From the IMG/VR virus record IMGVR_UViG_3300020048_000002: 64,000 nucleotides of DNA. One strand, 5' to 3'. Positions 2,183 through 26,900 of the stretch are shown in pieces. Position numbers and translations under genes: made by a program. This DNA comes from a virus. Its lineage: Duplodnaviria; Caudoviricetes. How positions within the stretch are numbered: position 1 is the first letter of the stretch; each line of letters opens with the position of its first letter. The notes beneath the pieces were generated by a model. The model was not told the origin of the DNA. It saw only the letters and a program-made list of their open reading frames with translations, and ran no database searches.

Positions 2183-3755
2183 CGTTGCCGACCAGTTTCA
2201 GCGCCCCAGTCTTTCGATCGGGAGCGGAAGCGAACTTTGCCCTTACACCGTCGTTGGCTTCAGCATCGTAGCCAACCCAATCCAAAATCTCACGTACATC
2301 GTCCGTCATTGTACGGATAATGCGAGGCTTGTGGGCCAACTCGTTTGCGAGTAGCTTCTCATCGAGAGCCGCTTTGCCCTTGTCGAAGCTCTCGACCATC
2401 GCCGCCCCGATGGCTTGCTCCATCTCGCGCCCGACCATTCCGGCAGCCTTCTCGGAGAGCATGGCAAGGTCAAAGTCGTCGGGCGTCTGCCCAGCCTTCC
2501 GGAGATGGATCTTCAGGATGTCTACCCGATCTTCCTCGGTCGGCATGTCGAAGAAGAACCTCTCGTCCATACGGTTGACGAACTCGACAGGCAGCGTCTT
2601 GAGGCTGTTGGCCGTCATGGCGAGACACACCTTGGCGTCCGTCTCCTGGAGCCAGGTAGAGAGAATCCCGATGGTCCGGGACGTGGTTCCGGCATCCGAT
2701 TGCGCCGACGACGCCCCACCCGAGAGGCTCTTTTCAGCCTCGTCGATCCATACGACACATGGGGCCGCCGCCTCGATGAGTCTGGTTACCCGATAGACAT
2801 TGGCCTCGGATTCGCCGACGCCCGACGAGCGGAGCTTGCCCATCTCGACCTGCACAACGGGAAGGCCCCATGCGTGGCCGAGAGCCTTGACGGAGAGGCT
2901 CTTGCCGCACCCCCAGACCCCCACGAGCAAGACACCCTTCGGTGGCTTGAGGCCGAACTTCTGCCCCGCATCCGTCCACGTCGCACGGGTCTTTTTGGCC
3001 CACGCCTTGAACCGCCCAGCACCCCCAACGTCGTCGAAGTTGAACGTCGAAGTGTCGATGTACTGAACGAGGTCCGACTTCTTGAGCTGCTTCTGCCGGT
3101 ATTCGGCAATGAGAGCCGGTTCGATACGGCGTGGGTTCTTCGTATCTTTTTTCGTGGCGATGATACTCTGTGAAATCGCCATCTTGATCTCGTAGCTCGT
3201 GAGACCCTTGAATACCTTGGGTGTATCGGCAGGCACTTCGGTACGAAGGTTCTTGGCCGCATCCTCGACGAGAGCCAAGATTTCGTCCCCTGTGAGCCCC
3301 TTGTCCTGAACGACCTCGATGTACCTAGACAGTTTCTCGGGAATGACCTTCCGGGTCCCGACAAAGATGAGTGTCTTGACGATCGTGTTGTCCTGGTGGA
3401 GCTGATGGGCGATGTTCAGAACACGCCGCTGGACATGAGGGTCCGCTAACCAACGCTCCGGATCGGTGATGACGTAGAAGTTCTGTTCCCGCTTCGGGTC
3501 ATCCTTGTAGATTTGGACGAGTGCTTGATGGATGTTGATCGTGTCCGGGTTCTCGGTGTGTGTGCGTTGCTTCCAATCGACGAGTAGGCCGTCGATAGGC
3601 ACGAGACCCAAGGCAGCGTTGTAGACCCATGTCCGCTTGCTGTACTCCTTGAGCTTCTGCTGGAGCTTCACGAGAAAGCGGTCTTCTTCGTCCGTCACGA
3701 AGTAAATAAAGCGAGCCAGCGAACTGAGGTAGAAGTTCAACTCGGGGGTGGTCAT
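2175..3755 (-). CDS. Ycf46/SpoVK-like AAA+ ATPase
   Basis: Walker A GVWGCGKS, Walker B VVWIDEAEK, 'GVGESEAN', 'MTAN', 'RMDERFF', plus an N-terminal degenerate AAA-like region as in the Ycf46 family. Confidence 0.9.
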   Translation of the reverse strand: MTTPELNFYLSSLARFIYFVTDEEDRFLVKLQQKLKEYSKRTWVYNAALGLVPIDGLLVDWKQRTHTENPDTINIHQALVQIYKDDPKREQNFYVITDPERWLADPHVQRRVLNIAHQLHQDNTIVKTLIFVGTRKVIPEKLSRYIEVVQDKGLTGDEILALVEDAAKNLRTEVPADTPKVFKGLTSYEIKMAISQSIIATKKDTKNPRRIEPALIAEYRQKQLKKSDLVQYIDTSTFNFDDVGGAGRFKAWAKKTRATWTDAGQKFGLKPPKGVLLVGVWGCGKSLSVKALGHAWGLPVVQVEMGKLRSSGVGESEANVYRVTRLIEAAAPCVVWIDEAEKSLSGGASSAQSDAGTTSRTIGILSTWLQETDAKVCLAMTANSLKTLPVEFVNRMDERFFFDMPTEEDRVDILKIHLRKAGQTPDDFDLAMLSEKAAGMVGREMEQAIGAAMVESFDKGKAALDEKLLANELAHKPRIIRTMTDDVREILDWVGYDAEANDGVRAKFASAPDRKTGALKLVGNDE

Positions 3756-3776
3756 CTCAATCTCTACTTACACCGG

Positions 3777-3815
3777 AAAAAGCGAAACGGTCTGCCTTTT
3801 TGGGGCAGACCGTTT
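3777..3815 (-). terminator. intrinsic terminator after the DUF1257 gene
   Basis: Perfect 12-bp stem AAACGGTCTGCC/GGCAGACCGTTT (3785-3815) followed on the minus strand by CGCTTTTT. Confidence 0.75.
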
Positions 3816-3835
3816 GGGTCGTAGGATCGGGGAAC

Positions 3836-4162
3836 TCAACCCACCGCGCAGATCATCTCGATTTCGCCGTTCCTGTTGATCGTGCGAGACTCGATCATGA
3901 TCCCTTGTCGAGCACACTCCAACTTGTACTTGGCTTCGCTGTAGTGGAGCTTGAGGAGCCCGAGCTTGTCCTGGGTGTGCCCGAAGTCGGTGTCCCCAGA
4001 GATCTGCCCCGTCCGAAGGTCGAGGACAGCGTGGTTGAGCGCCCCACTCGTGAACCGGAGGAAAGAGCCGTCCTCCGTGACCCCGATGCCCGCTGCCTTG
4101 GCCGCCTGCATGGCAAGGGCCTTGTCCTTGATTTCCGTGGAAGTCGTCACGCGATGAGACAT
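3836..4162 (-). CDS. DUF1257 (Ycf35-like) protein
   Basis: N-terminus MSHRVTTSTEIKD matches the MSHF..IKT.I.D pattern; sits between a DUF2997-like gene and a Ycf46-like ATPase. Confidence 0.7.
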   Translation of the reverse strand: MSHRVTTSTEIKDKALAMQAAKAAGIGVTEDGSFLRFTSGALNHAVLDLRTGQISGDTDFGHTQDKLGLLKLHYSEAKYKLECARQGIMIESRTINRNGEIEMICAVG

Positions 4163-4192
4163 GGTTCTATCCTTTCGTGTCCGGGCCGATCC

Positions 4193-4375
4193 TTACGACC
4201 CCTGAATCTCGTGGACGGAGTCGCACTCAGGGCCGATCTCCTCGTCCGAAAGCTGCTTGCCGACGGCGTTCGTGACCTTGTAGATCTCGCTACAGAGGTG
4301 CGATCCGCGATCCAGCACCTCCGTCACGACGGTGCCGTCCTTCTTGATCACAACCTTGAACTTCATGGCTGACAT
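4193..4375 (-). CDS. DUF2997-like small protein
   Basis: 'FKVVIKKDGTVVTEV...LCSEI...VG' fits the I.PDG.V..EV...C pattern. Start moved to ATG 4375 because of an AGGAG RBS. Confidence 0.7.
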   Translation of the reverse strand: MSAMKFKVVIKKDGTVVTEVLDRGSHLCSEIYKVTNAVGKQLSDEEIGPECDSVHEIQGS

Positions 4376-4394
4376 GTTTGTTCTCCTGTCCCCT

Positions 4395-5009: not shown

Positions 5010-8000
5010 GAAGACACCTCTTCTCCTACCTTACCATCGGACAAGTTCATCTCCAACAAAGAGCGAGCAAACTTGTTGGCGTCCACCCGAATCTTGAGGT
5101 TGGGGTCGATGAGGACATTGCCGAACCCATCGACGAGGCGCAGGTACGGACCCGTTTTCGAGATCCATCGAGCTACAGCCCCACGCACCTGCCCTACCGT
5201 GATGGCCTTCGTCATGGTCAGTCGCACCGTGGCGATGGAGGCTTTCTCCGACGTCGGAGGATTTAGCGTAGGGGTAGGCCGGACGGTTGTAGCGGGCACG
5301 GATGCCGCCACAGGTTCGACGACATGAGCTTTCCCCACCCCCTCGGTAGGTTGCACCCCTACGGGAGCAGGCTCAGGTACGTGACCTTCTGCGGGGATGA
5401 ACGGATGAAGGGCCTCTGGCACTTTACCGTAGACATACCCGTGAGCGATGAAGCCGCCCTCTTTCGGTTTCTCCCCCTCTTTTGCTCGATGGCAAGAGTA
5501 CTCAGCCCCCCATGACTCTCCGATGAGGGGTTCGGTGATGAGGGGTACCTTCCAAGGTGGGGAGTACGGTGGGCGAGCCATCTTCGTGGGGCTCTCCATC
5601 TTCTCCGTGAAGACAGGTACAACTTCAAATACCTTCTCGTGTTTTACCTCAAACACCAACTCGTCGTGGACGGTGAGGAGCATACGGACGGTATCGGTCT
5701 GGTTTCTCAGCCACCCGCGACGGTAGAACTCCTTGTGGAGCACAACCATCGCAATCTTCATGATGTCGGCCCCTGAGTTCTTCGTGATGACACCATCCGC
5801 CTCGAACCGGTGCAGAGGGTCGTTTACCGAGAGAGTGAAAGTATCATCCTCTTCCGTCCGCTCAATCTTCGAGGCCAGACGCTTGAACCCATAAATGGGG
5901 GAGTCGAGCACGACCCCCAACGCCTTGCACAAGCGGTCTAGCGTGTAAACGCTGACTTTGCCCCCGGTCTTGAGCCGGAGGTACATATTGTAAAGAGACT
6001 CGTCGGAAAAGTCTTTGCGGACCCATGCGCCCTTTGAGAGGAGGTTCCGGACGAGAAAGCTCGGAGCGAACATATCGTGGAACTTCGGGTGACGAAGTTC
6101 CGTTCGTCCCATGACATTACGCTCGAACATCCGCCGCTGTATGTCGAGCCGGTAGCTGGTCGTCTCAGATCCCTCACTGTTGACGCCCTGGTACGGACCT
6201 CGGAGGCACGACTCCACCCCCAGCGTGCGGAGCAAGAGTTTCGTGTCAACCAGAAGCTCCCGTTGACAGAGATGCAGATTATAGGGGTTACCTTTGGCTG
6301 TATCGAGCGGAGGACGATGCCCGTCCGAGTCCATGAAGCCACGCATGAACGACCGACGATGAGCCAGGGTTTCTTGAAACAAGCGAACTGGGAGTCGCTT
6401 GGTATGCGCTGTTGCCGGGTTGAAACCAACCCTGCTCAACCACCTTGTCAACTCGACCCCCCAGACTTCGACCCGTGCGCGGGTCGAGCTTTGCACAGCG
6501 GGGGTGTGCGTGGACCAAATCACTTGAGGGTTCAGTCCACACGACTGCCAAAAGCTGACGCAGGCGTCAATCGCTGCCCGCTCATGATCCCCGAACGTAT
6601 AGCTGAGCCCCCCACGGGGATCCAACCAACCGTCCCCCATGTACCGGCCAAGCCAGTACCAGAGATCTGCAAGCGCCTCGTTCGCAACCGCGACCTTGTT
6701 TCTCGCCTTGGGTTGCTCCTCCATTGGGGGAAGAGGCTCGGGGCTCATCTCCACAGGCTTGCACAAGGACGTTGCCACACGGTCGCCAGGCTTCAAGTCA
6801 GCGTACTCGACCCACGAGTAACCCTCGTCTGTGACAACCAAGAGCTTGTGGCGCGTGTCACACTCAACGGTAGTTCCGTCCGCCAGTAGAATGTCGGCAA
6901 GCTGCCACCGACCCATGTTGTGAGCCGTGAACGTCGCCCACTTGGTGCCCGTCCAGACGCGCAGTCCATCTGTGCCTTGAGCCTCAAGCTCTCCAATGGA
7001 CTTGTACCCTTGATCGGTTAGGACAACCGAGTGCGCTTGCAGGCACCCTTGGATCGGGTAGTTGGTGGCGTGACGTTCACAAGCAGCTCGTAAGGCTCGT
7101 ACGTCGTCCTCGCTCACGAGCATCCGACCGTTCGAGTCCTTCTCGTTGAGCTTTGCGTTGGCATCGGGGATCGCCACCCAACGACCAAACGCCGTGTGTA
7201 CGCCGAGTTGCTTCTTGACCCGCTCGTGTTGGCCTTTGACCCAGTTCGCGAACGTCGGGACGGCCTTGTCGAACGCTTGCTTGCGCCGCTGGGCTTCGAG
7301 CTTGTTGCAGCCAGTAGCCCTCATGATGGAGGCAGGCCCACCGCCGTAAACGAGGGCGAAATTGGCCGTGTTGTGGGTAACGTGCCCATTTGCCCAATAG
7401 ACGTGGGTAGGCTCTACGGTAAGGTCTACGCACGGCCCATCTTCGGCGGGAAGAACCGCCTTCACAACGTACCGATCTGTTACTCGACCTGCGTACTTAG
7501 GTTCACGCAGACGAGCCTTTTTACCCTCGTGGCGAAGGTACGAACGCATCTCCCATGAGGACGCAACCGTGAGACGTAGGCGAACATAGTGTCGCTCGTA
7601 CGTCCGGTTGAACGTAAGCTCCGTCTGAAAGTCAAAGCCGAAGGCCCGAAGCGAGGCCGCCACTTGACCCGCTAGAACCATGTCCTTCGTGGTCCAGTCA
7701 AGGTTGGGACTATCGAGCCCCACCGTGCCGTCGGTGTCGAGAAGGCCCGCAAAGTAGTGAAGGAACGAGGTACGGCCTGCCCCGAGTACCCAAGTCGGAA
7801 TGCGGAGTGCTTTGCCGTGCTTTCGCTGTAGACCTAGTCCAGTGAAAAGCCGCACCACTACCCGACTACCAAGGTAGAGTTGCTTTTCGTCTTTGCGTGT
7901 CGTTGTGAGCCCACAACGGGTAGCGGCATCTTCGAGGGTACGAATCCAATCCTCGTACGGGTTCCCGTAGGCATCGATCTTCTCGGCCTCCCCGTGCGTA

Positions 8001-12970: not shown

Positions 12971-15900
12971 TCATACGTCAGCCATCGCATCGAGCACGGC
13001 TTGGTGGTCATCGATGCTCATGCCGCTGCCATCGGCCCCCTGATACGAGTCAAGATTGTAGATCCGACGACAGGCAAACTCGACCTTCGCCATGAAAGGC
13101 TCGATGAGCGGGTTGTCACGGTTCTTGAGGTTGCAGAACAGGGTGGTCCCGTTCTTCCGGTGCTCGTCGTTCAGGTAGGTGGTCGTGATCACGTCCGCCG
13201 ATTTTTCGCAGTTGTGCGAAAGGAACCCGTTCGTCGAGTACTCGTGATCTCCCGTCACCTCTAGGTCATAGACCCTGATGGGAGCTTCCTGCACAACACC
13301 TGTGACCTTCAAGGGCAGCACGCAATCCAACCGTTCTTGCAAAGTTGCTCTATCTGGGTCGGTCTCAGGCAACCTGTCAATGACTTCGCGGATAACGCCA
13401 AGGCTCGCGTAAACAGCCCCCATACGAATGCGTCGAGCGGCCTTTTTGGCAGCACGGCTCATCCCTGAGCATCGCTCCACAACGTCGGCGAGAAGCGTCC
13501 CGATAGGCCACGTCGCTCGATTGTCCTTGGTGCTGCCCACCACATTACGGAGGCGTTCGGTCTTGTGTGGCTCTGTGAACCCCACGGTCTCCATGAACGT
13601 CCGAACGCCTAGCCGTGACCCTATGCGCAACACGAAACGTTTGTAGGACTTGCCGTTCAATCGTGTGCTGCCTTCCGACAAGGTCGAGTCAATGCCAAGA
13701 CCGAGGAGCATTAGGTGAACTTCTTGCAAGAGACGTTCGGACTTCGCCGCCATTCCCAAGGCTACGCTGCCTTGATTGTTGATCGACCCGTCCGTGTCAA
13801 ACAACCCTTGCAAGAATGCCTGTACTTGAGACTTGGTTGCCCGTCGAATAACGTCAGGGACGGCAGTCGCCCGACCTTCCCCCACGACGACTCGCTTGAA
13901 CCATCTCGTCAGAGCCTTGTTGCTTTTCAGGAGATCGAACGATCCCGACCGTGACGGGCTCTCCAGCAAGGTCATGTCCTGTCCAAAAGTGCTTCGGAAC
14001 GCCTCCATGAGGCGAGTCCGGACAGCGACCTCTTTCCGATTCCCCGTGAAGCCTACAGTGCTCAGGCCCTCCTTGAAAACACCGTCGCCCATGAAGGCCC
14101 CGATCAAGTAGGCTAGGTCGCTCGTCAAGTGATTTGGCACCACAAGGGGCTGTTGTTTCATGCCTTGTGGTTTCTCGTATGCCTGAAAATCCAGGGCGGG
14201 AAGGTTAGGAGGATCCTTGGCGAAAGGGTAGTCTCCAAAGGTGGTGCCTACGTAGTCGCCAACCTTCAGGTTCTCCGCATAACCCCACCCCCAACCATCC
14301 AAACCTCCAACCCTCAGACGGTGGTTGGAAGTGACTTGAAGAGTGAGCCCCTTATCCGTCTGCACCCGGAGGGTAGGTCGTACCCCATTGTCGAAACGAT
14401 TCAGAACCGTTTTCCACCCCGAACGGCTCCACACCAAGGCACCCATGGGCACCGACTCAATGGGTACCAAGCCCTCGTCCGTAAGCACGAGAGTGCCCTC
14501 TGCTACGCACTCGTTGGCGTAGGAAAGTGCCGACGCCTTGTAGCGACCATCGTTCTTGTTGGCCTCTTCCTTACCTTGACGGTTGATCTGAAACAACATG
14601 AGGACGGGGATCTTCTCGCCGTGGTTGAAGTGGAGGCAGAACTTCTTGGTGTCGCGAATGATGGAGTTCAGCTCCACCACGTAGTCCTTCGACTTCTTAG
14701 CCTTCCGGGCTTCCATGAGCTGCCCGTGGTCGATGACGATGAGCCCGACCTCCATCTGCTTGTGGGTCAACTCCGCATCGAGGCGAATATCGTCGATGGT
14801 CATGTCGCGATCGGGGGACCGAATCTCGAACTGACAATACTCGGGGTTGTTGCAGAAGTCGTCGATGACCTTCTGGTAAAAGGCTTCCTCCTCGGGGGTG
14901 AGTTCCCCGTCACGGACTCTCCGGTAATCGAGGGGGCGATAACCCTGAGCCCGCCACTTTGCATGACTCGAATGAATGACGTAGACTTGCAGCCGTAGCT
15001 GTTCGTACGGCATTTCGAGCGAGTAGTAGAGGATGTTCGACTTGTAACGGGTGGCGAGGTTGTAGCACCAGTTGAGGGCGAACGATGTGTTATGCGTTAC
15101 GATGTCGTTCGCGACGAACGTGTGATGCTCTGGCACGGATAGGTCGTACGTCATCTCCCGTCCACGAGAGACGACGGAAGTAACTTGCTCCCAGGTGAGA
15201 TCGCCGTCTAGTACACGAGCCACGTCGGGGTATTGCCGGAAAAGCGTCGCAGTATCCGCCCGCATGGTGGACCGTCCCTTGACTTGGCTGGCATACCTAA
15301 ATTTACCGTGGACGAAAGGCACCTTAGCCCCATCGGGCACGAAGTCTGATGGGATGGACATGTCGTCCCCCGGCAACAACCGAGCACGAACTTCCGCGAA
15401 GTCGGCCTCTTTCCCGACCACCACGACTCGATGGGCAAACACTCGCTTGGACTCGCGCGTCACCACACGAACCGTGTGGAACGTGTAAGGCTCCCCCCTG
15501 TACGTGGTGTTCACCTGAGTGACCGTGGACTGAATGCCGAGACGTAGCAAGAGGGCCTGCACGTCAAGGCACAATCCACGGCTAACGGAGGCATACGAGA
15601 TGTCGTTTCGATGGCAATCGCTTTCACGATCATCTCGTTCATGGTCCCCGTGATGACATGAACCATCCGTCGACCACAAGGCCCCGATAAGCAAAGCGAC
15701 TTGGTCCTCGGGAAGGGAGAAGAAGTCGTCAGGGACGCGCTTATCGTAAGACCCCTTGCCATATAGGCCGAGCAAATCGAGAAGCCCTCTGACTGGAGAT
15801 TCCATAGGGCTGTTACCGTCGCCCGCGCTGTTGCTGACCCGCACGCTAGGGGCACGATTGGGTTGGAAAACCTCGCGAAACGTGGGGGTCACGTAGTCGG

Positions 15901-17026
15901 CGGCACCCTTTACCAAACCCATGTCGATCAGGCACGCCATGAAGTCTCGCCGGATTTCCTCGTTAGAGGCAGTCAAGGTGATGTCTTTCGTGAGGGACCC
16001 GTCCCCGATGAGGTACCCCACCACCTTGACCTCTGCGTCCGTAAACAAACGCTGACCCTCGAAAGACATTTGCTTTGGGGTCGCTACCCAATCCCCTTCC
16101 CGAAGAGTGGATAGTTCCTTCCAACCTGCCGGGGTAAAAAACTTGTGGTTGTCCGTCGCCCCAATGGTTCGTCCCGACGACAAGGTCAGGTCGAACACTT
16201 CGCGCACCCCGTTCTGAACGAGATGTGAGGCTGGGGTGCGAATCAGCCGGAAGGTTTCGCCCTCACGGTCGAGAGCGGTGACAACGGGCACGTCACCCGT
16301 CTCATACATCTCTTGCAAGGTGCGACGCCGGTTCGTGCGGTGGTCATACACCGTCACGTCTCCCGCGAGACACTTGAGTTCCCCCGGAAATGCAGCGTGA
16401 ACCCACAACTCGCCCTTCTTGATACCGTGGCTCACCGAATCGATGTTGTTGAGTCCGGTGAACTTTCCCCACACCTTGTCTTTGTTGACCTTGGCGTCGA
16501 GATAAGAGTCCCACATGGCTTGCCCGTCGAGCCGGATGTCTCCCGCCGTCCGAGCATTGAAGTCCGATAGGACGAGATCATGGGCCTTTTGCGTGAAGTA
16601 AATGAGCCCCTCTCGAACTCCCTGCTTCCGAATCTTCTCCCGACCCTCCTGGATGATGAGCCCCTTGTTGATAATCTCATGGGCTTCCTTCAGAAGGGTC
16701 GTTGCCTTGATTCGATTCTGCTCCTCTAGGAGAGTCGTAATCAGGTGAGCGAAGTTGGTACGAACGTACCAAGGGGCTGCTGCAATGTCCTTCAGCCGTT
16801 CGTTGGCCTCTAGGTCGCCCGTCTTGTCGAAGTAGTCGATGACGGTCTGAGCCGAAGGCATTTCCAGTCGTTGCTGGAAGTACGAAGCAAGGAAATCGTA
16901 AACCTTGGCATCGTCCGGGCGGTTCCATTCGATGCGCGCCTGCGTCACCTTCTGGAAATTTTGGACAAGCTGCTCCGGGGTGATCTGCCCGTCGAAGTCA
17001 ATGCAGGATCGGAGTAGGCGCTTCAT
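12971..17026 (-). CDS. dnaB: DnaB-like replicative helicase with two inteins
   Basis: P-loop AAFPGELK|TSFALN, SLEM, IVIDH, FQINR, E|CEKSAD, KNRD. Confidence 0.9.
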   Translation of the reverse strand: MKRLLRSCIDFDGQITPEQLVQNFQKVTQARIEWNRPDDAKVYDFLASYFQQRLEMPSAQTVIDYFDKTGDLEANERLKDIAAAPWYVRTNFAHLITTLLEEQNRIKATTLLKEAHEIINKGLIIQEGREKIRKQGVREGLIYFTQKAHDLVLSDFNARTAGDIRLDGQAMWDSYLDAKVNKDKVWGKFTGLNNIDSVSHGIKKGELWVHAAFPGELKCLAGDVTVYDHRTNRRRTLQEMYETGDVPVVTALDREGETFRLIRTPASHLVQNGVREVFDLTLSSGRTIGATDNHKFFTPAGWKELSTLREGDWVATPKQMSFEGQRLFTDAEVKVVGYLIGDGSLTKDITLTASNEEIRRDFMACLIDMGLVKGAADYVTPTFREVFQPNRAPSVRVSNSAGDGNSPMESPVRGLLDLLGLYGKGSYDKRVPDDFFSLPEDQVALLIGALWSTDGSCHHGDHERDDRESDCHRNDISYASVSRGLCLDVQALLLRLGIQSTVTQVNTTYRGEPYTFHTVRVVTRESKRVFAHRVVVVGKEADFAEVRARLLPGDDMSIPSDFVPDGAKVPFVHGKFRYASQVKGRSTMRADTATLFRQYPDVARVLDGDLTWEQVTSVVSRGREMTYDLSVPEHHTFVANDIVTHNTSFALNWCYNLATRYKSNILYYSLEMPYEQLRLQVYVIHSSHAKWRAQGYRPLDYRRVRDGELTPEEEAFYQKVIDDFCNNPEYCQFEIRSPDRDMTIDDIRLDAELTHKQMEVGLIVIDHGQLMEARKAKKSKDYVVELNSIIRDTKKFCLHFNHGEKIPVLMLFQINRQGKEEANKNDGRYKASALSYANECVAEGTLVLTDEGLVPIESVPMGALVWSRSGWKTVLNRFDNGVRPTLRVQTDKGLTLQVTSNHRLRVGGLDGWGWGYAENLKVGDYVGTTFGDYPFAKDPPNLPALDFQAYEKPQGMKQQPLVVPNHLTSDLAYLIGAFMGDGVFKEGLSTVGFTGNRKEVAVRTRLMEAFRSTFGQDMTLLESPSRSGSFDLLKSNKALTRWFKRVVVGEGRATAVPDVIRRATKSQVQAFLQGLFDTDGSINNQGSVALGMAAKSERLLQEVHLMLLGLGIDSTLSEGSTRLNGKSYKRFVLRIGSRLGVRTFMETVGFTEPHKTERLRNVVGSTKDNRATWPIGTLLADVVERCSGMSRAAKKAARRIRMGAVYASLGVIREVIDRLPETDPDRATLQERLDCVLPLKVTGVVQEAPIRVYDLEVTGDHEYSTNGFLSHNCEKSADVITTTYLNDEHRKNGTTLFCNLKNRDNPLIEPFMAKVEFACRRIYNLDSYQGADGSGMSIDDHQAVLDAMADV
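13211..14509 (-). mobile_element. intein 2 in DnaB with LAGLIDADG endonuclease (433 aa)
   Basis: E|CVAEGT ... GFLSHN|C; endonuclease motifs IGAFMGDG and LQGLFDTDG. Confidence 0.92.
15089..16372 (-). mobile_element. intein 1 in the DnaB P-loop with LAGLIDADG endonuclease (428 aa)
   Basis: K|CLAGD ... DIVTHN|T; endonuclease motifs VGYLIGDG and IGALWSTDG. Confidence 0.92.
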
Positions 17027-17908: not shown

Positions 17909-19657
17909 TCATTCGTCGTCGTCGCCCTTGCCTTGCATACGACGAACAAGATCCTTCGTGGACGACTCCTTGCCGAAGTCGAGAGCGCCGACAGCGGACT
18001 CCCCGAGCACCCGATCGATCAGGTTCTTCTTTGACTGAAGAAGGGCCAGGACGTGGTGGTCGATGGTCTTGCGGTCCTTCTTCTTCTCACGGGGCCGCTC
18101 AGCGACAAGGTGGTAGCAGACGATGTGCTGATGAGGGCTCCCGATACGGATCGGACGACCAAGGAGCTGGACGTAGTTGCCCCACGACCACGGGGCGTCG
18201 TAAAACACCATCGCAGAGGCGGCTTGAAGGTTGATGGCTTCCGAGCCCGCATCCGTGATGAAGATGACCTTCGTGTCGGATTCGAGGTTCTGGAACGCCT
18301 CTTGGTTGCGACGACGGGCCTTGTCGTCTTCCTTACCGGTGATGCGGACGCTCTTGATCTTGGCCTCGGCCAGGATGTGCTGAAGACGTGGGACGATACT
18401 GGCGAACCTCGTGTAGACAATGACCTTTTCATCCTCTAGCTCATCGACGATGAGGTCGAGAAGCGCCTGTTCCTTTGAGCCGAGCTTGTCGATCTTGAGG
18501 TACTCGTCGCGGAACATGCCCGTTTCGATCTCGGTCCCTTCCTCGAACTTCAAGGTAGCGAGCGAGTTCACGACCTGCTGGCAATAGATGAGGCTGACGA
18601 ACGCCTTGTGCTCCTCGTAGTCCTTGACCGTACCGTCCCCTAGCTCGAACACGCCGGTTAGGGCCTCGGAGTACTTGGCGTCCTCGGCAGGGGTGATCTC
18701 GCAAGCGATTTCTTTCGTGATGAGGGTCGGAAGCTCCTCACTGATCGTGTGCTTTTGCCGCCCAAGAAAGAAAGGGTCGATACGGTCCCGGAAGTGCTGA
18801 AGATTCCGGTAGCCTACGACCAACGGGACCGAACGCCCACCGCCAACCGGCATGAGACGGGTCACGCAGTAGTCGTTCATGAACGCCGTCTTTGTCGAGA
18901 AAAGATCCGGTACGAGCGCCTTGTAGATCGAGAACCCCTCCATCAGGTTGTTCTTGAGCAAGGTCGCCGTGAGCCCGTAGACCCTATGAGATCTCTGCGA
19001 GAGCTGAGAGACCACCTGCCATGTCTTGGTCGAATGGTTCTTGAACGCCGTAGCTTCGTCGAACACAACGACGATGCTCTCCAGGTCGTTGGTGAGCCCG
19101 TTGACGAGCCCCCGCATCATCACACCCTTGTCCTTCGGGTGACTCTTCTTCAGCCCGCCACCGTGATCCCAGTCTCGTACTAGGATGTGGTAGTTGACGA
19201 GCAAAACGGGCTTCGTGTCCCCGTCCACCGGGTGCTTGGCCCAGGCTTCGTAGGTCTTGCGCCGTTCGTCCAGACTACCCGAGACGATGTACGTTTTGAC
19301 CCCCGTGGTGAACCGCTGAATCTCGCCGTCCCACTGACGCAGGGCGGACTTCGGGGTCACGACGATGACCTTGTTGGCCGGTTCCTTCGGCCAAAGGTAA
19401 CAGAGGGTACCTATCGTCTGAAGCGTTTTACCCGTGCCCGTGGCGTCCCCGAGCACGAGGCGCTTCATCATGAGCAGGTGGTAGATGCCCTGACACTGGT
19501 AGTACCGGAGCCGGAGAGGCTGAGGTTTCCCATCCAGCCCCTTGATCTCCGCCCGAAGCATCGGGGTCGGCTTGAGGGCTATCGTTTTGGACGCTCGAAC
19601 CTGCCTGAGCTTTTCGTAGGCAGTCGCAATCTCGGGAGGCAGTGGTTTATCAGCCAT
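17909..19657 (-). CDS. SNF2-family (SF2) helicase/ATPase
   Basis: LGDATGTGKT, VFDEAT, LTATLLKNNL.E, EAINLQ.A, PW, GRPIRIG. Start ATG 19657 (GAGGGGG RBS). Confidence 0.92.
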   Translation of the reverse strand: MADKPLPPEIATAYEKLRQVRASKTIALKPTPMLRAEIKGLDGKPQPLRLRYYQCQGIYHLLMMKRLVLGDATGTGKTLQTIGTLCYLWPKEPANKVIVVTPKSALRQWDGEIQRFTTGVKTYIVSGSLDERRKTYEAWAKHPVDGDTKPVLLVNYHILVRDWDHGGGLKKSHPKDKGVMMRGLVNGLTNDLESIVVVFDEATAFKNHSTKTWQVVSQLSQRSHRVYGLTATLLKNNLMEGFSIYKALVPDLFSTKTAFMNDYCVTRLMPVGGGRSVPLVVGYRNLQHFRDRIDPFFLGRQKHTISEELPTLITKEIACEITPAEDAKYSEALTGVFELGDGTVKDYEEHKAFVSLIYCQQVVNSLATLKFEEGTEIETGMFRDEYLKIDKLGSKEQALLDLIVDELEDEKVIVYTRFASIVPRLQHILAEAKIKSVRITGKEDDKARRRNQEAFQNLESDTKVIFITDAGSEAINLQAASAMVFYDAPWSWGNYVQLLGRPIRIGSPHQHIVCYHLVAERPREKKKDRKTIDHHVLALLQSKKNLIDRVLGESAVGALDFGKESSTKDLVRRMQGKGDDDE

Positions 19658-19706
19658 GCCCCCTCTTACACCGGAGGACGGACCCAACCCGGTGTTTTTT
19701 GCAGCC

Positions 19707-19745
19707 AAAAACGCGAAAGGCCCGCATCCTTTCGGAGCGAGCCCT
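19707..19745 (-). terminator. intrinsic terminator closing the non-coding unit
   Basis: Minus strand reads AGGGCUCGC-UCC-GAAA-GGA-U-GCGGGCCUU, then UCGCGUUUUU. Confidence 0.7.
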
Positions 19746-20256
19746 GCACGGGTTCTGGAGCACGTTTGCCTATGTTGGGCGTCTGTCGGCTCCTTGCGGT
19801 AGCCTTCCACCGATCCCATTCGGGGACCAGCCTTTCGACTGGTCACGACCTCCGAGGGGCCTCAGTATGCGGTTGCCCGCGATACCGTTCCACCTCTGCC
19901 CTCCTTGACCTCACCCGCCTGTTGCTTGCGGGGTGTTGGGGGCTGTCTCTCAGCACCTAGCTTGAGTCGGCTCTTTCGAGCGTTCTCACCGCACCCGTCC
20001 GGCCCGCTTGGATGGTGTTACCCACCGCGCTGCCTTCCCGGTCTGCCTGCCCGAACGGTGTCCGTTTCCTTCCACCGTCCTTGCCGCTTGACCGGCGGAC
20101 CCTTTCAGGTCCGTGGTCCCCTTCGAGCTTCTCGGCGATCCTTTCGGGGTCCGATTCACCGGCAGCCTTGCGCCTACCGTGTGTTGCTCTCTTAGGGGAA
20201 GACCGACAAACCCTTGGCCTTGCGGCACTCAGGTTCGGCGGTCAGCGCCGAAGACG
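19707..20256 (-). ncRNA. candidate large structured non-coding RNA (about 550 nt), family unknown
   Basis: No credible CDS; about nine GNRA-capped hairpins on the minus strand; flanked by a promoter and a terminator. Confidence 0.75.
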
Positions 20257-20262
20257 AGGCCC

Positions 20263-20290
20263 ACTATACGCAGGCTGAGACGAAGTGCAA
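20263..20290 (-). promoter_or_regulatory. sigma70-like promoter TTGCAC-16 bp-TATAGT
   Basis: -35 at 20290-20285 and -10 at 20268-20263, with an A/T-rich tract upstream. It points into the non-coding region. Confidence 0.65.
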
Positions 20291-20321
20291 CAACTATTTT
20301 CGACACCGATGTCGATTTTTC

Positions 20322-20885
20322 TCAATCGGCGGAAAACATGCTGTTTTGGAGCGATAAAAACCGCTGGACGACTCGTTCCGATGCAAGTCGGCAGTCGAGG
20401 TTGCGGGGTGGGGGCGTGTCCTGACGCCCCTTCCAGAACGTCGTGATGACGTGGGCCGTACGCCCACGTAGCTCGAACACGACTTTCAAGCTGTTCTTCC
20501 CCACCCACTCGATCTTCCGACCTTGAGAAACGTCACGGTACATCCGATCGTAGTTCGGATCTCGCTTCGCCTTCCACTCGTCCAGTTGACGCACGAAATC
20601 GGAGAGGGCCTGTCGAACATCCTCTACCGTGATGCTGCGCAAATCCATGCGGTATTGCCCGTGGGCCGTGATCAAGATCTCTTGGATCGGCCCGGTGCCC
20701 CGCTCCTTGTCCAGACGATAGATCTTGGAGGCATCGGAGTTGGATAGGTCCACCCCAGACTCCACCTCATCGATCATGTCCTCCTTGAGCTGAGGCTCCC
20801 GGACGGCACGATCGATTCGTTGGACTACCTGGCATGGGCCACCGGGCTTGCCGAGGGGCGGCGTGAGATCGGCTTCGTGTTTCAC
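20322..20885 (-). CDS. protein with a C-terminal DUF4258-like (RelE/BrnT-type) putative RNase domain
   Basis: 'ITAHGQYRMDLRSITVEDV ... LKVVF....VITTF' fits the T.HA..RM..R.I...V.....IT pattern. Confidence 0.55.
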   Translation of the reverse strand: MKHEADLTPPLGKPGGPCQVVQRIDRAVREPQLKEDMIDEVESGVDLSNSDASKIYRLDKERGTGPIQEILITAHGQYRMDLRSITVEDVRQALSDFVRQLDEWKAKRDPNYDRMYRDVSQGRKIEWVGKNSLKVVFELRGRTAHVITTFWKGRQDTPPPRNLDCRLASERVVQRFLSLQNSMFSAD

Positions 20886-20892
20886 GGGGGCC

Positions 20893-21996
20893 TCACTTCA
20901 TCTGCGAGATAGCAGCTTCGAGCGTCGCTTTGGTGGACGGGGAGAGGTTGAACTTGTCGACGAATAGTTGCAGGAGCTTCTTGCCGTCCCGCATCCGAGT
21001 GACGTTCTTCTTCTCGCCTCCGTAGGTGTAATCCCCAAAGATCTTCCGTAGAAGCCCCGCCTGCATGAAGCGCGTGATGTCGTTCTCGTCAAGGTACTCA
21101 GCCTTGCCGTTACAAACGATGGCCACCGACTGCCAATCCGACGTGGAGTATCGTTCCTTCACCTGGTAGTGATGAGGCTTCTGGTCGTAAGACTTGCCGT
21201 AGGCAACCTCGATGACGTGCTTGCGCCCCATGACCTTGGGGTCGTCCCCGGCCACAGCTCCAGACTCAGCGAGCCAGTGCTTGATCGAGAGGGCCGATCC
21301 ACGCGGAGCCTTTTCGCTAAAGTGCCAACCACGGGCGTCCACAACCTTCGAGTTGAACTTGCCCTCGAAGCGAATGAGCTTCATGGCTTTGACGACATTC
21401 CCGTAAAGCCATGCCGGTTCGGTGCCTTCGCTACCCGAGATCGGAATCTCAAGCACCTTCATGGCCCACTTGTCCTGGTCGGCACCCGCACCGATGAAGT
21501 ACTGCTTGTAGATGAAGTGCTGTGCGGCCACGAAGACATGCTTTGAGTCCGTCTTGCCGTAAGCCACCCAGCAAGTATCCGAGCGGTAGAACTCGTCCGA
21601 CGAGTACCCGGTGCCCCGCTGCGTGTCGGTCACGAACTGCCAATCGACGCCGCCAGGGACACCAGCCTTGCTCTTGGCCTCGTCGAAAGAGACTTCCTCC
21701 GTCTTGGCTTTTTCCCAGTGCGTCTTTGTTGGACCACCGGAGCTAGGAGCGTCGTAGGAGCTAGGTCCCGAACGATCGTAGGTCGGACGCTGCTTGCCCG
21801 TGAGAACGTCCTTGGCGACGTTCACCTCGACCATCTTAGCGGGGTCGCCACCCCGGTCAGGGTGCATCTCGAACGCCTTGGTTCGCCATGCCTTCGTAAT
21901 CTCGGCCTCGGAAGGATTGTCTTGGGGGCCGAAACCAAGGAGGGCCTTGGCTTCTTCCATCGACATCGCGAGCATCAAAAAGGCGTAACGGTTCAT
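20893..21996 (-). CDS. J-domain (DnaJ-like) protein
   Basis: 'ITKAWRTKAFEMHPDRGGD...VNVAKDVL' J-domain with HPD. Start moved to ATG 21996. Confidence 0.85.
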   Translation of the reverse strand: MNRYAFLMLAMSMEEAKALLGFGPQDNPSEAEITKAWRTKAFEMHPDRGGDPAKMVEVNVAKDVLTGKQRPTYDRSGPSSYDAPSSGGPTKTHWEKAKTEEVSFDEAKSKAGVPGGVDWQFVTDTQRGTGYSSDEFYRSDTCWVAYGKTDSKHVFVAAQHFIYKQYFIGAGADQDKWAMKVLEIPISGSEGTEPAWLYGNVVKAMKLIRFEGKFNSKVVDARGWHFSEKAPRGSALSIKHWLAESGAVAGDDPKVMGRKHVIEVAYGKSYDQKPHHYQVKERYSTSDWQSVAIVCNGKAEYLDENDITRFMQAGLLRKIFGDYTYGGEKKNVTRMRDGKKLLQLFVDKFNLSPSTKATLEAAISQMK

Positions 21997-23110: not shown

Positions 23111-23654
23111 CGGCAGGCTTCGACTCGGGCTTGGCAACTTCGCTAGCCACTTCTTCGAGGTTCTTTGCAGCTTCCTCGATCTTCTCCGCCTTCTCCGAAA
23201 CCTTCTCGGCCTTCTCCGCTAGCTTGACCGCTGCATCCGCAACCTGGGCCAACTTGTCATCGAGAGCTTCCGGCTTGGGCGAAAGACTCGGGATCATGTT
23301 CGCTCCGTTGTCCGGTCCTTGGGCTTGACCCTGTCGGAAAAAACCACGAACACGAGCGTAGAGCCACCCACAGAAAAGGCCGCACACGATGGCGTACATG
23401 GCCCGGGCCGAAGCCGATTCGGCTACAGCAGGAGGCCACGGGAACTGCTTCAACGTGACAGCAAGGAGGAGTCCGTTGCCGATGGGGCCAAGCGGCAGGA
23501 GCACCTCGTACCACCACTTGTTCGTGGTCGCACCCTTCCACGCCGTCTCGACGACTCGCCGAACGGCTGCCGTCATCACGTAGATGGTGAGTCCCAAAAG
23601 AAGCGTTTGCCAGTTGGCAAACACGCTCAGTCCGTCATCAAGTGTAGTAGGCAT
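23097..23654 (-). CDS. putative holin
   Basis: Three hydrophobic segments and a charged C-terminal tail; positioned just after the tail genes. Confidence 0.55.
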   Translation of the reverse strand: MPTTLDDGLSVFANWQTLLLGLTIYVMTAAVRRVVETAWKGATTNKWWYEVLLPLGPIGNGLLLAVTLKQFPWPPAVAESASARAMYAIVCGLFCGWLYARVRGFFRQGQAQGPDNGANMIPSLSPKPEALDDKLAQVADAAVKLAEKAEKVSEKAEKIEEAAKNLEEVASEVAKPESKPADESL

Positions 23655-23682
23655 CGGGGTCTCCTAAACTGGAGACCCCGAT
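23653..23682 (-). promoter_or_regulatory. RBS-sequestering hairpin over the holin start
   Basis: Perfect 12-bp stem ATCGGGGTCTCC/GGAGACCCCGAT that contains the GGAG SD and the AT of ATG. Confidence 0.7.
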
Positions 23683-23693
23683 AGAACGATCCA

Positions 23694-23900
23694 CTACTTA
23701 GCTGTCTCAGGCTTGACTACGGCGATGAGACCCCGTGCCCACTTTTCGAGGTGAGCGACTTGATCTTGTAGACCCTTTCGCTGCTCGTCCGTAAGCATGG
23801 GGTTCATCATGGCCGAGCGAAGCCGATCCTTCGCTGCCTTGGCCCCCGACCGTCGTTGCTCGGGGGTCAGATCCAAGTATGTGAGAGTCTTGATGCCCAT
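23694..23900 (-). CDS. hypothetical protein (68 aa)
   Basis: Tiles with neighbours; helical composition. Confidence 0.65.
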   Translation of the reverse strand: MGIKTLTYLDLTPEQRRSGAKAAKDRLRSAMMNPMLTDEQRKGLQDQVAHLEKWARGLIAVVKPETAK

Positions 23901-23909
23901 GGGTGTGTC

Positions 23910-26900
23910 TCAGGGTGCCGGGGGCCGACGAGTCAGAGCAAGCGTCGAGGGGTCAACGTTTGCTCGAATGTTGTCCCGAACAAGCGGGTGGCCCTCGATG
24001 CGGTAGAGGTCAACTGCCGCATTTCCTTCGGCCATGCCGTTCGTCGAGAGGTCCACCACTTGAGGCGCTGGTCCGACAGTCCCAAACGTGTCTTGGAACT
24101 GCGTTGCCACCACCAGCATCAACTCGCCTCCGGCCGAAACCTCCGTGGCCCCCTTGAGGGTCGGAGCATTTCGCACGAGATAGGCGGTCCCCGCAAGCAC
24201 GTTGGATACGCCGTTCGTCAGGTTGGACGAACCTACGAATCCGGGTGAGAACGAGCCTCCGGGGTTGTCCCCAGAAGCCAGGAAGGCTGAGCCGCCTCGG
24301 AAGGTTCGGTAGTTCGTGAGAAGGGCGTAGTTCCCCTGCTCACCGTCAACGTGAACCATCACGTTTCCGGGTTCAACCGAAGCGTCCGCAAGAGCCACCA
24401 AGCTGGTTGCGTCGAGGGTCGAGTTCGTGGCTAGCCCACCAAAGTACCCCAGAGACATGTTCTGGTGAACTTGCGTGTGACCCGGTTGAAGGTTCGAGAA
24501 GAACACCGCTCGGAAGTCCTTGTCGCGACGGAGAGCCCCAAGGGGAAGGCGTTCCGTGCAACCATTGTACTTCGAGAGGTAGTTCGAACTCTGAGGCTCG
24601 CCAGCAAGGCCGCCCGTAAAGAAGTTGGGACGGGGATCCAGCGAGGTCAAAGGCGGGTAAGGCGTCGGCCCTGATTGGCTGATGTCCTCGTACCCTGCGT
24701 TCCCCAGAGGGCTGTTGAGGTTGGGGGCACCCCCGATACGTCCCGTTCCAGCCGTCGTCGCGAAGTTGAGGGCGGCTAGGATCTCTAGCGGCTTCTGGTT
24801 CGGACGAGTCAGAGCACTCTCGTTGATCTGCGTCGAGGCGATCTGGTAGGCCACACCGGTCTGGAGAGGGCCGGGGTTGTAGGAGATGTCGATGTTGTTC
24901 GTCTGCGTGCCCCACGCATCTCCACCGTACGGGGTACGGCTGAAGTTCACGAGGGCACTGTCACCCGCCGTCATGGGGCCGGGCAGAATCCCGACGGGTC
25001 CAGCGATGGCAATGTTGACGTTGTTGGCTCGTGTAACGAGATCGTTGGCCTGCTGGCGCATCCCCGACGAGGGAGTTGCACGGGTGAGGACAATCCGAAC
25101 CTCACGGCGGTTAAGCGTCGGATCCGGACGGAACGTGTCCCGGTCGAACCCAAAGATGCTCGCCTCGATGATGTAGTTCCCCGCCGCAAAGTTCGCGATG
25201 GGAGCCGGGGACTTCGAGATGTCAATGGCAGCCGCGTTCAGCACGAACGTCGAATCTCCATCGTCGTCCGTTTCGATCCAGAAGGTCGGGCCGACAACGT
25301 TTTGACGAAGGAGGTTCGTCGCCGCCGTGAGAGAGCCCGTCCGCTCACGGGTCGAGCTGTCAAAGGGCGAGCCGTTGATCTTGTAGTCGTTGGCTTCGTA
25401 GACGCCGAAGAGTCGAGTGACCCCGTAGAACGGAGGAAGCTGTAGCCCTTGCCGACCCGAACCCGTGGTGTCCGTGAACTGCCGGATTCCAGCGTAGTTG
25501 TTTCCAGAGTACGAGATCGCCGCATTGTAGGGTGCGGGGTTCGTACCCGGAGGGTTCAAGTCCAGCGTCGTGAACACGGCGTAGCTGAACGTACCGTTCG
25601 AGTAGGGCACGTAGTTACGATCCGAGTTCGCTTGAGGCGACGCCCCCTTCAACGAGTTGAAGAAGAAGTTGACCCCCTCATCAAAGCTCGTCGTATCGAC
25701 CGGGAGGATCGGTACGTGAACTGCCCCGTTCTGGGGAATCAGATGGCCGGGGAGCGACACGTAGAGGTTCTTCGTCGCCGCCGTGGTATCCGTCGTCCCT
25801 GCGAACAGTTGGAGCGGATCCGTCGTCGTCCACTTGGCCGTCACACCATCCCGCTTCAGGAGCGGCATGAGCCCTTGCGCCTTGTAGACAAGGTAGCTTG
25901 CACTTCCGGTGTTGCCGCACGGGCGGTCGAGTACAAGCGTGTCGTTCGGGTTCACCGTGGTCGTGATGGCCGTGATTGTGAACCTGCCGGTGCGCACACC
26001 CGCCGTGATCACGACCGCATCTCCAACCATGACCCCGGCTGCTGCGAGGTTGGTACCCGTGACGTCTTGGAGCTGGTTTCCCGTCGCTCCAGCAAGGCCC
26101 GCAGGGGTAAAGAAGGGGGTGGGCCGAAGGTTGGCGGCCGTACCCTCGATAGTGATGAAGTTGTCCGGCCAATCCATGAGCCGGAACGGCTGAAGGACAA
26201 GCGTCTTGCTTCCGTGGTCGAGGTAGGACTCGGCTGTTACAGGCGGTCCGTCGAACCCGGTCTCGTAGCGGAACTTGCTCCATTGAACAACGTGGCCCGT
26301 GCTCAGTCGGTAGTTGTTCGAGGGGAACTGCGCCGCCGTGTGCATCAGGTTGACGGTCGGGCTAAGCAGGCTGACCGAGTGCAGAGCATCCGGTCGCCTC
26401 GAAACACCACGACCAGCCCCGTACATGACGTGGAGGGTGATGTAGAGCTGCTTGCCGGTGATCGGGAACCCGCCACCCAAGGTGATGACGAGATCCGTCC
26501 CGGACGTGAGCGTTGCCGGAGTCACCGTATACACAGCAGGGGTCAGCGGGTCGGTGTCCCCGTCGATCCTGATTTTCACTTCGTACGGGGCCTCGTTGCA
26601 CCAACGGACCTGATCGGAGTCTCCCCCAGGGAGCCCTGCCTTGAGCTGTGCGACGGGGATCTGAATGACCGTGCCGGGCTCGAACTGAGCCACACCCGGA
26701 GCCGCAGAGGTGCGGTTGGCCGTAAGGGTGAGAGCCCAAGGCGCACTCAAAAGGGCCGGGGGTGCGTTCGTGTTCGGAGCGACCACAAGCTCGACTGGCT
26801 GAACCACCGACGCATCCGAGAAGATCATTCGGATGTTGTCGGGAGCGTCGAGCTTCGTGACTCCAAGCGCCACACCGCCACCCGTCACCTTGTCCTGGTA

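Follow-up and report, generated by a model that had tools for sequence, protein, structure and literature searches.

Outside ribosomal RNA we know of few RNAs of about 550 nucleotides (nt) in bacteria and phages. Among the large structured RNAs described so far, OLE, ROOL, GOLLD and raiA each had an unexpected architecture, ROOL being a homo-octameric RNA-only nanocage. A smaller phage-encoded structured RNA, the packaging RNA (pRNA) of phi29, has its own promoter, is ~170 nt long and functions as an RNA multimer, the packaging ring, with intermolecular loop-loop pairing. ROOL and GOLLD are RNAs of phages and prophages that form RNA-only cages by cryo-electron microscopy (cryo-EM), although their biological role is open; ROOL env-120 has 659 nt, many GOLLD members exceed 800 nt, and the loci of both often lie beside transfer RNA (tRNA) islands (PMC12286853). 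A large screen of IMG/VR for viral structured RNAs gave motifs of 29-151 nt only (PMC10690425), and an RNA of the present kind would not be described in full by screens that stop at motifs of about 150 nt. Here we describe such an RNA, encoded on the minus strand at 19705..20262 of a 64,000-nt stretch (the window) of the Caudoviricetes record IMGVR_UViG_3300020048_000002. The window is part of a 310,849-base freshwater phage contig, and its length makes the virus a huge phage. The element is a stand-alone structured non-coding RNA (ncRNA) gene of ~550 nt whose family is absent from Rfam 15. It has a promoter, a terminator, a strand-specific fold maintained by compensatory pairs and no coding signal, and its RNA was detected, as assembled contigs, in RNA sequencing runs. 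No RNA of this kind was described in the literature searched. We consider it very probable that this is a genuine new structured ncRNA gene whose product acts in trans.

Like ROOL and GOLLD, the window RNA is phage-encoded and comes from a stand-alone gene with no associated protein gene. Its ~550 nt are of the same order as ROOL env-120, though many GOLLD members are somewhat longer; its multi-helix fold is elaborate and shows covariation, and it appears highly abundant as RNA. Unlike them, it matches neither the ROOL covariance model nor that of the conserved GOLLD 3' domain, even at E<=10, its helices are laid out differently, and its distribution is very narrow, being confined to freshwater huge phages in three lineages. 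With OLE, raiA and HEARO/omega RNA it shares large size, strong structure, conservation by covariation and apparently high expression. However, it has no Rfam match, is phage-borne rather than chromosomal, and has no OapA-C genes, IscB or raiA nearby. The phi29 pRNA resembles it in being phage-encoded and structured with its own promoter, but among the conserved loops of the window RNA none that are palindromic or mutually complementary were found, and packaging genes are not adjacent.

Three homologues carry the comparative analysis. A conserved 187-amino-acid (aa) protein encoded just upstream of the RNA gene led, when used as a query, to two short contigs. L013 encodes a protein 99% identical to the query and contains the entire RNA, near-identical to the window copy. 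L012 encodes a protein of 81% identity and has the RNA in the same slot, cut by the contig end after ~440 nt. The third homologue, L049, is full-length, lies on an 8.4-kb contig and was the single real match among 39 (the other 38 were due to chance) in a scan of JGI metagenomes with an invariant 18-mer. Exact-protein look-ups around L049 returned only L134, an identical copy of it in an ENA assembly. Nucleotide identity is 81.5% between window and L049 over the full length, 75.7% between window and L012 over 440 nt, and 81.6% between L049 and L012. L049 encodes a DHH phosphoesterase, a YAcAr/SLOG protein and other phage-type proteins, but neither the 187-aa protein nor the SNF2 helicase that lies downstream of the RNA in the window, and in tblastx the window and L049 had the RNA cassette alone in common.

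A preliminary description of the locus, made from the letters alone, had given the RNA gene the layout of a complete transcription unit, and both signals are where it placed them. The sigma70-like promoter TTGCAC-16-TATAGT at 20263..20290 (minus strand) is an exact match, and its hexamers are conserved in all homologues (TATAGT in L049, TATAAT in L012). The intrinsic terminator, seen in the sequence and in the consensus fold at ~19705..19761 on the same strand, consists of a long stem rich in GC, capped by a GAAA loop and followed by UUUUU, and is 100% identical to that of L049 over ~35 nt. The RNA should begin within 20255-20262 and end at the U-run near 19705-19710. The promoter is presumably used by the host sigma70 polymerase; the early timing suggested in the preliminary description, like this use, would follow only from the conserved sigma70-like promoter. 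A perfect palindrome, TCGACA-N4-TGTCGA, lies between A-tracts at 20300..20315, 9 nt upstream of the -35 hexamer. Its arms (TCGAC/GTCGA) are conserved in the window, L049 and L012, hence in all three lineages, with a varying spacer, and it reads as a terminator for the non-coding plus strand only. An operator, an upstream promoter element and a hairpin are possible readings of it. Elsewhere in the window both promoter and palindrome gave chance-level matches only. Homology between window and L049 starts just upstream of the palindrome and stops right after the terminator, indicating that the conserved and apparently portable unit is the whole transcription unit. The gene is therefore a self-contained promoter-to-terminator cassette (a non-coding 'moron') of huge freshwater phages that two unrelated contigs have in common.

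Folding of 19700-20262 as the minus strand gave a minimum free energy of -264.5 kcal/mol (z = -3.97), a value matched by none of 100 dinucleotide shuffles; the plus strand gave z = +0.18. Hairpins capped by GNRA tetraloops, which the preliminary description had listed along the minus strand, are indeed present and are enriched on that strand only. With stems of at least three contiguous pairs, six were found on the minus and none on the plus strand, and first-order Markov simulations produced a mean of 1.35 and reached six in 5 of 2000 cases. Each sequence has 14-19 G-U pairs, which would be A-C mismatches on the opposite strand. The G-U pairs, together with promoter, terminator and z-scores, identify the minus strand as the RNA strand. 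The RNA is rich in purines and poor in U (G 35.5%, A 23.6%, U 12.4%).

The consensus structure was computed with RNAalifold from four sequences (alignment A3), and pairs were counted on the same sequences that yielded the structure. The fold has 168 pairs in 24 helices, and 99.4% of cells form standard pairs. Both sides had changed in 27 pairs, as compared with 0-1 when the 3' partners were slid by 1-3 columns, and none of 500 shuffles reached the observed pairing values. Such compensatory changes were distributed over 16 of the 24 helices, so that covariation among homologues, named in the preliminary description as a check on the RNA, is abundant. Sequence evolution thus preserves an ornate fold composed of a long-range helix, a multi-arm junction, hairpins, ten GNRA loops and GAA/A-rich junction strands.

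The 5' domain (19945..20255, minus strand; RNAalifold helices 2-14) is a multi-helix junction with six hairpin arms, five of them GNRA-capped, and is closed by a long-range 12-pair helix formed by 20255-20244 with 19957-19945. Helices 3, 4, 5, 7, 8, 9, 10, 12, 13 and 14 of this domain each contain one to three pairs changed on both sides. In alignments A2 and A3 a 30-nt block, GAGAGACAGCCCCCAACACCCCGCAAGCAA, at 19922..19951 on the minus strand is identical in all lineages; it takes in the closing helix's 3' strand together with the hairpin that follows. The middle domain (19854..19943, minus strand; helices 15-18 of the consensus fold) has two irregular hairpins. One of these, with a GCAA/GUAA loop, has had nearly all of its stem replaced by compensatory changes, and in helix 18 four of the seven pairs changed on both sides. 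Two 3' hairpins follow on the same strand, GACCAGUC-GAAA-GGCUGGUC at 19825-19844 and a branched GCAA/GAAA-capped hairpin at 19776-19818. Together (19776..19844) they make up helices 19-22, of which 19, 20 and 21 have compensatory pairs. Tetraloops vary between sequences within GNRA only (GCAA/GAAA, GCAA/GCGA, GAAA/GCAA and GCAA/GUAA), and the strands at junctions are often GAA, CAA or AAC. Read by inspection, the apex of the longest hairpin, G-GAA-G-GAAA-C-GGA-C, gives three purine-purine pairs under the tenth GNRA loop. No pseudoknot of at least five pairs was conserved among the unpaired columns. The perfect 5' hairpin UUCGGCG/CGCCGAA of the preliminary description exists in the window sequence, but it is not part of the conserved fold. 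It shows one-sided changes only and one break in L012, and its arms have other partners in the comparative data: the 5' arm belongs to the long-range helix, and the partner of the 3' arm is 20199-20211, a pairing that shows two compensatory changes. The hairpin may form transiently during transcription.

A conserved protein-coding signal would, according to the preliminary description, have refuted the RNA, and none was found. Substitutions per codon position were 35/29/40 and 33/35/39, showing no codon periodicity, the indels (7 and 5) were all single bases that break the frame, and stops occur in every frame of every homologue. The GC-rich stretch contains spurious open reading frames (ORFs) of 80-130 codons in several frames. 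The longest on the sense strand (129 codons, in L049) had no relative among 5.8 billion protein clusters, and on L012, L013, L134 and L135 no gene had been called in the region.

The proposal of a class new to Rfam also held. Searches of Rfam 15 with cmscan were negative, both over the window at gathering thresholds and on 19500-20500 at E<=10. The homologues, searched at E<=1, had no match inside the RNA, the lone match being a chance microRNA upstream. ARAGORN found no tRNA or transfer-messenger RNA (tmRNA) in the 64-kb window. Bacterial RNase P RNA was rejected at E<=10. The conserved regions of RNase P RNA that form P4, CR-I (GAGGAAAGUCC) and CR-V (ACAGAAnCCGGCUUA), have only loose resemblances here (AGGAAACGGAC and CCAGAACCCG), and the consensus pairing partners differ. 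Group I and group II introns were rejected because there was no Rfam match and the unit, with a promoter and terminator of its own, lies between genes; relatives have unrelated small genes in the slot. A type III toxin-antitoxin (ToxI-like) system does not fit either, as there are no tandem repeats and the 187-aa gene and the RNA each occur without the other.

Twenty public runs, belonging to 11 studies, contained the RNA stretch; their labels are freshwater, aquatic or subsurface, and eight of them were metatranscriptomes. Runs with a small share of it (X13-X20) were left out of the evidence on habitat. Window positions 18500-21500 were compared with the assembled contigs of four runs, three freshwater metatranscriptomes (from three studies) and one DNA run. 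Contigs from the metatranscriptomes were confined to 19795-20247, several with zero differences, and left both 19705-19794 and the flanking genes without cover. In the DNA run all 30 bins were covered, flanking genes included. The bare flanks make DNA carry-over an unlikely source of the RNA-run contigs, since carry-over would include the flanks. The missing cover is a weak hint only, and the ends of the contigs there probably reflect branching of the assembly graph. One RNA run contained two diverged variants (20 differences over 157 nt and 32 over 208, with small indels), and therefore more members of the family exist and are present in RNA libraries. These RNA-confined contigs are suggestive of expression. 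They speak in favour of the transcript that the preliminary description had expected, but do not show its strand or ends directly.

Homologues upstream of SNF2 genes in related phages had also been expected, and here the expectation failed as a general rule, since close relatives are without the RNA and one homologue stands in an unrelated context. In nhmmer searches the slot upstream of SNF2 showed no similarity to the RNA in the IMG/VR relatives L001-L006 or in the closer ENA/Logan relatives L009-L011. In these relatives and in two further contigs listed without DNA, small reverse-strand genes occupy the slot instead, also where SNF2 is 79-89% identical. Homologues of the 187-aa gene in L010, L014 and L015 are not followed by the RNA, and L049 has the RNA without the 187-aa gene. 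Because each occurs without the other, the 187-aa gene is not an obligatory partner of the RNA. Beyond these relatives, five scans of IMG/VR with conserved 17-21-mers gave no matches or chance matches (65 loci had no nhmmer match). Two loci matching the 20-mer GACCAGTCGAAAGGCTGGTC, L007 and L008, were unrelated terminator hairpins, and a pattern match in L070 lies inside an integrase coding sequence (CDS) and was attributed to chance. The 187-aa protein had no relative in IMG/VR, the INPHARED phages gave no blastn match, and both pattern matches in GTDB representative genomes were chance. BLAST against five related huge-phage records (G001-G005) gave short chance matches only. A covariance model of one RNA sub-domain (R1, 157 positions) gave one weak match in these records (E = 0.022), which was rejected as it lies inside a collagen-like CDS. 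R1, which covers one sub-domain only and could miss a distant relationship, had no match in the RaK2 genome. Missing in the nearest relatives and present in an unrelated contig of the same kind of habitat, the RNA gene fits an accessory cassette exchanged among phages.

How such an RNA might work can be proposed from these properties. It would be transcribed by the host sigma70 holoenzyme from the conserved promoter, would accumulate as a stable transcript, and would act in trans as a compact particle whose tertiary fold depends on A-minor and GNRA-loop/minor-groove contacts. The argument for such a fold is the density of GNRA loops together with the A-rich junctions. The likeness to ROOL and GOLLD in size, phage carriage, ornateness and abundance suggests, tentatively, an RNA-only and possibly homo-oligomeric scaffold or container of the ROOL/GOLLD type during infection, which we regard as the most likely single mechanism, although the odds are against any one mechanism. 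With the same reserve, the RNA could represent a third structural class of self-assembling phage RNA-only quaternary particle (cage, ring or lattice), in which the ten GNRA loops and A-rich junctions would make the contacts between molecules, or else a new class of large ribozyme, that has spread as a portable cassette between unrelated huge freshwater phages.

Several points weigh against the interpretation as a whole. The 64-kb window lacks tRNA genes, unlike many ROOL and GOLLD loci. Assembled contigs are the evidence for expression, and neither strand nor ends nor level can be read from them. The covariation statistics are descriptive, not of the R-scape type, because only three independent lineages were found, and several helices are invariant, including the outermost 5-pair helix and the terminator. 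Finally, the RNA was not found in the closest relatives, IMG/VR, INPHARED or the GTDB representatives at the sensitivity used, an absence which indicates that it is rare and dispensable for the phage group.

The same purine-rich sequence could instead serve as a protein decoy or sponge, a rather unlikely reading but a coherent one, in which an RNA-binding protein of host or phage, such as a defence sensor, a global regulator or a ribosomal component, would be titrated by the folded RNA. Repeated purine motifs on a rigid scaffold, namely three conserved GGAAGG and many GAA bulges, would do the binding. Besides the purine-rich, U-poor composition and the three GGAAGG, the conservation of GAA junction strands in all lineages and a metatranscriptome presence that suggests high abundance agree with this, and the patchy, cassette-like distribution fits an accessory or counter-defence role. 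However, there is no co-occurring protein gene and the flanks differ between lineages. Moreover, most GGA-type motifs are in or beside helices rather than in open loops, and ten conserved GNRA loops favour RNA-RNA tertiary packing over protein sites.

A new ribozyme, acting on phage or host RNA as a processing enzyme or on itself by cleavage or ligation, is improbable. Large ribozymes typically have what this RNA has: a large multi-helix junction, invariant single-stranded blocks (e.g., 19922-19951) and dense GNRA loops. But no RNase P, group I, group II or small-ribozyme model matched at E<=10, the gene interrupts no other gene, and no conserved pseudoknot of at least five pairs turned up in the unpaired columns. 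The run contigs contained no processing joint, though contigs cannot reveal ends.

The location of the gene immediately upstream of the SNF2, DnaB and polymerase genes, a G-rich RNA strand and a nearby change of G-C skew sign (at 23,851) would also be expected of a replication-origin transcript, that is, a G-rich pre-primer or R-loop RNA like ColE1 RNA II or T4 oriF/oriG, and RNA II is close in size to the window RNA. We nevertheless consider this reading very unlikely. The transcript stops at an intrinsic terminator that is strong and perfectly conserved, and 3.5 kb separate the RNA gene from the skew minimum. In L049 the copy has no helicase or polymerase genes beside it, close relatives replicate without the RNA, and an origin primer has no need of ten conserved GNRA loops.

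A cis-acting leader, attenuator or riboswitch of the SNF2/replication operon has scarcely any probability left. The RNA gene is directly upstream of SNF2 and co-oriented with it, and the stem-loop at its 3' end can pair in alternative ways (as a CGAAAGG...CCUUUCG hairpin or in a longer stem), but the downstream gene is a different one in L049, the terminator is invariant, relatives with 79-89% identical SNF2 do without the RNA, and the RNA-run contigs end before SNF2. Least credible of all is a decaying gene remnant, or a small protein gene missed by ORF calling: the spurious ORFs described above could suggest one, but stops in all frames, frame-breaking indels, the missing codon periodicity, an ORF translation without protein relatives, 168 pairs maintained by compensatory changes and cassette borders conserved in an unrelated context all speak against it.

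The RNA represents a new and unrelated family. Its clean gene structure, its well-supported secondary structure and the signs of its abundance in nature make it a ready target for cryo-EM and biochemistry. Such work would add a third independent case to the question of whether large phage RNAs generally act as self-assembling particles. The conserved cassette also suggests that genes for large structured RNAs move between phages as independent units.

In the window all long ORFs are on the minus strand, and the RNA gene, which is single-copy there, occupies a gap of ~660 nt between the stop of the 187-aa ORF (20322) and the ATG of SNF2 (19657). Two further spaces of at least 600 nt separate long minus-strand ORFs (439-1072 and 3756-4394), and small ORFs lie inside both. 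The upstream neighbour, the 187-aa conserved phage protein (20322..20885, minus strand), belongs to no Pfam or PHROG family, and tail and baseplate genes lie farther upstream. The downstream neighbour is the first gene of the replication module (17909..19657, minus strand) and encodes the SNF2-family helicase (Pfam SNF2-rel_dom 2e-25 and Helicase_C 5e-19; PHROG 62, DNA helicase). It is followed by genes for an intein-bearing DnaB, a DNA methylase and a family-A DNA polymerase.

The slot between the 187-aa (or a DnaJ-domain) gene and SNF2 is highly variable (window 19658-20321; L001, L009, L010, L011, L014 and L015). It is filled by differing small reverse-strand genes of 43-132 aa, including matches to DUF6891 and cREC_REC, or, in three contigs, by the RNA. 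In L001, whose SNF2 is 79% identical, the ~290 nt at 3440-3730 in the equivalent slot are rich in GC, contain no ORF and include a terminator and a GCTTCATCGGG motif that recurs; the neighbouring reverse-strand gene is small and acidic, and the sequence has no similarity to the RNA gene. Directly downstream of the RNA homologue in L049, 670 nt (7291-7960) without a called gene contain a repeated CGCUCACCUCGUAGA motif. With only 20 shuffles, folding gave z = -4.0 for the strand opposite the RNA and z = -2.1 for the RNA strand. This segment may be a second, convergent structured RNA.

The cumulative G-C skew of the window has its minimum at 23851 (region 23654-23910), where the sign of the skew flips while all genes remain on the minus strand. 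This switch may mark an origin or terminus of replication, or else the point where composition changes from the tail-fibre to the lysis/replication modules. The DnaB-like helicase ORF (1351 aa, window 12971-17026) contains two stretches each of intein splicing and LAGLIDADG domains. Several SNF2 homologues of related phages are intein-bearing as well (~950 aa, with Pfam intein/LAGLIDADG matches).

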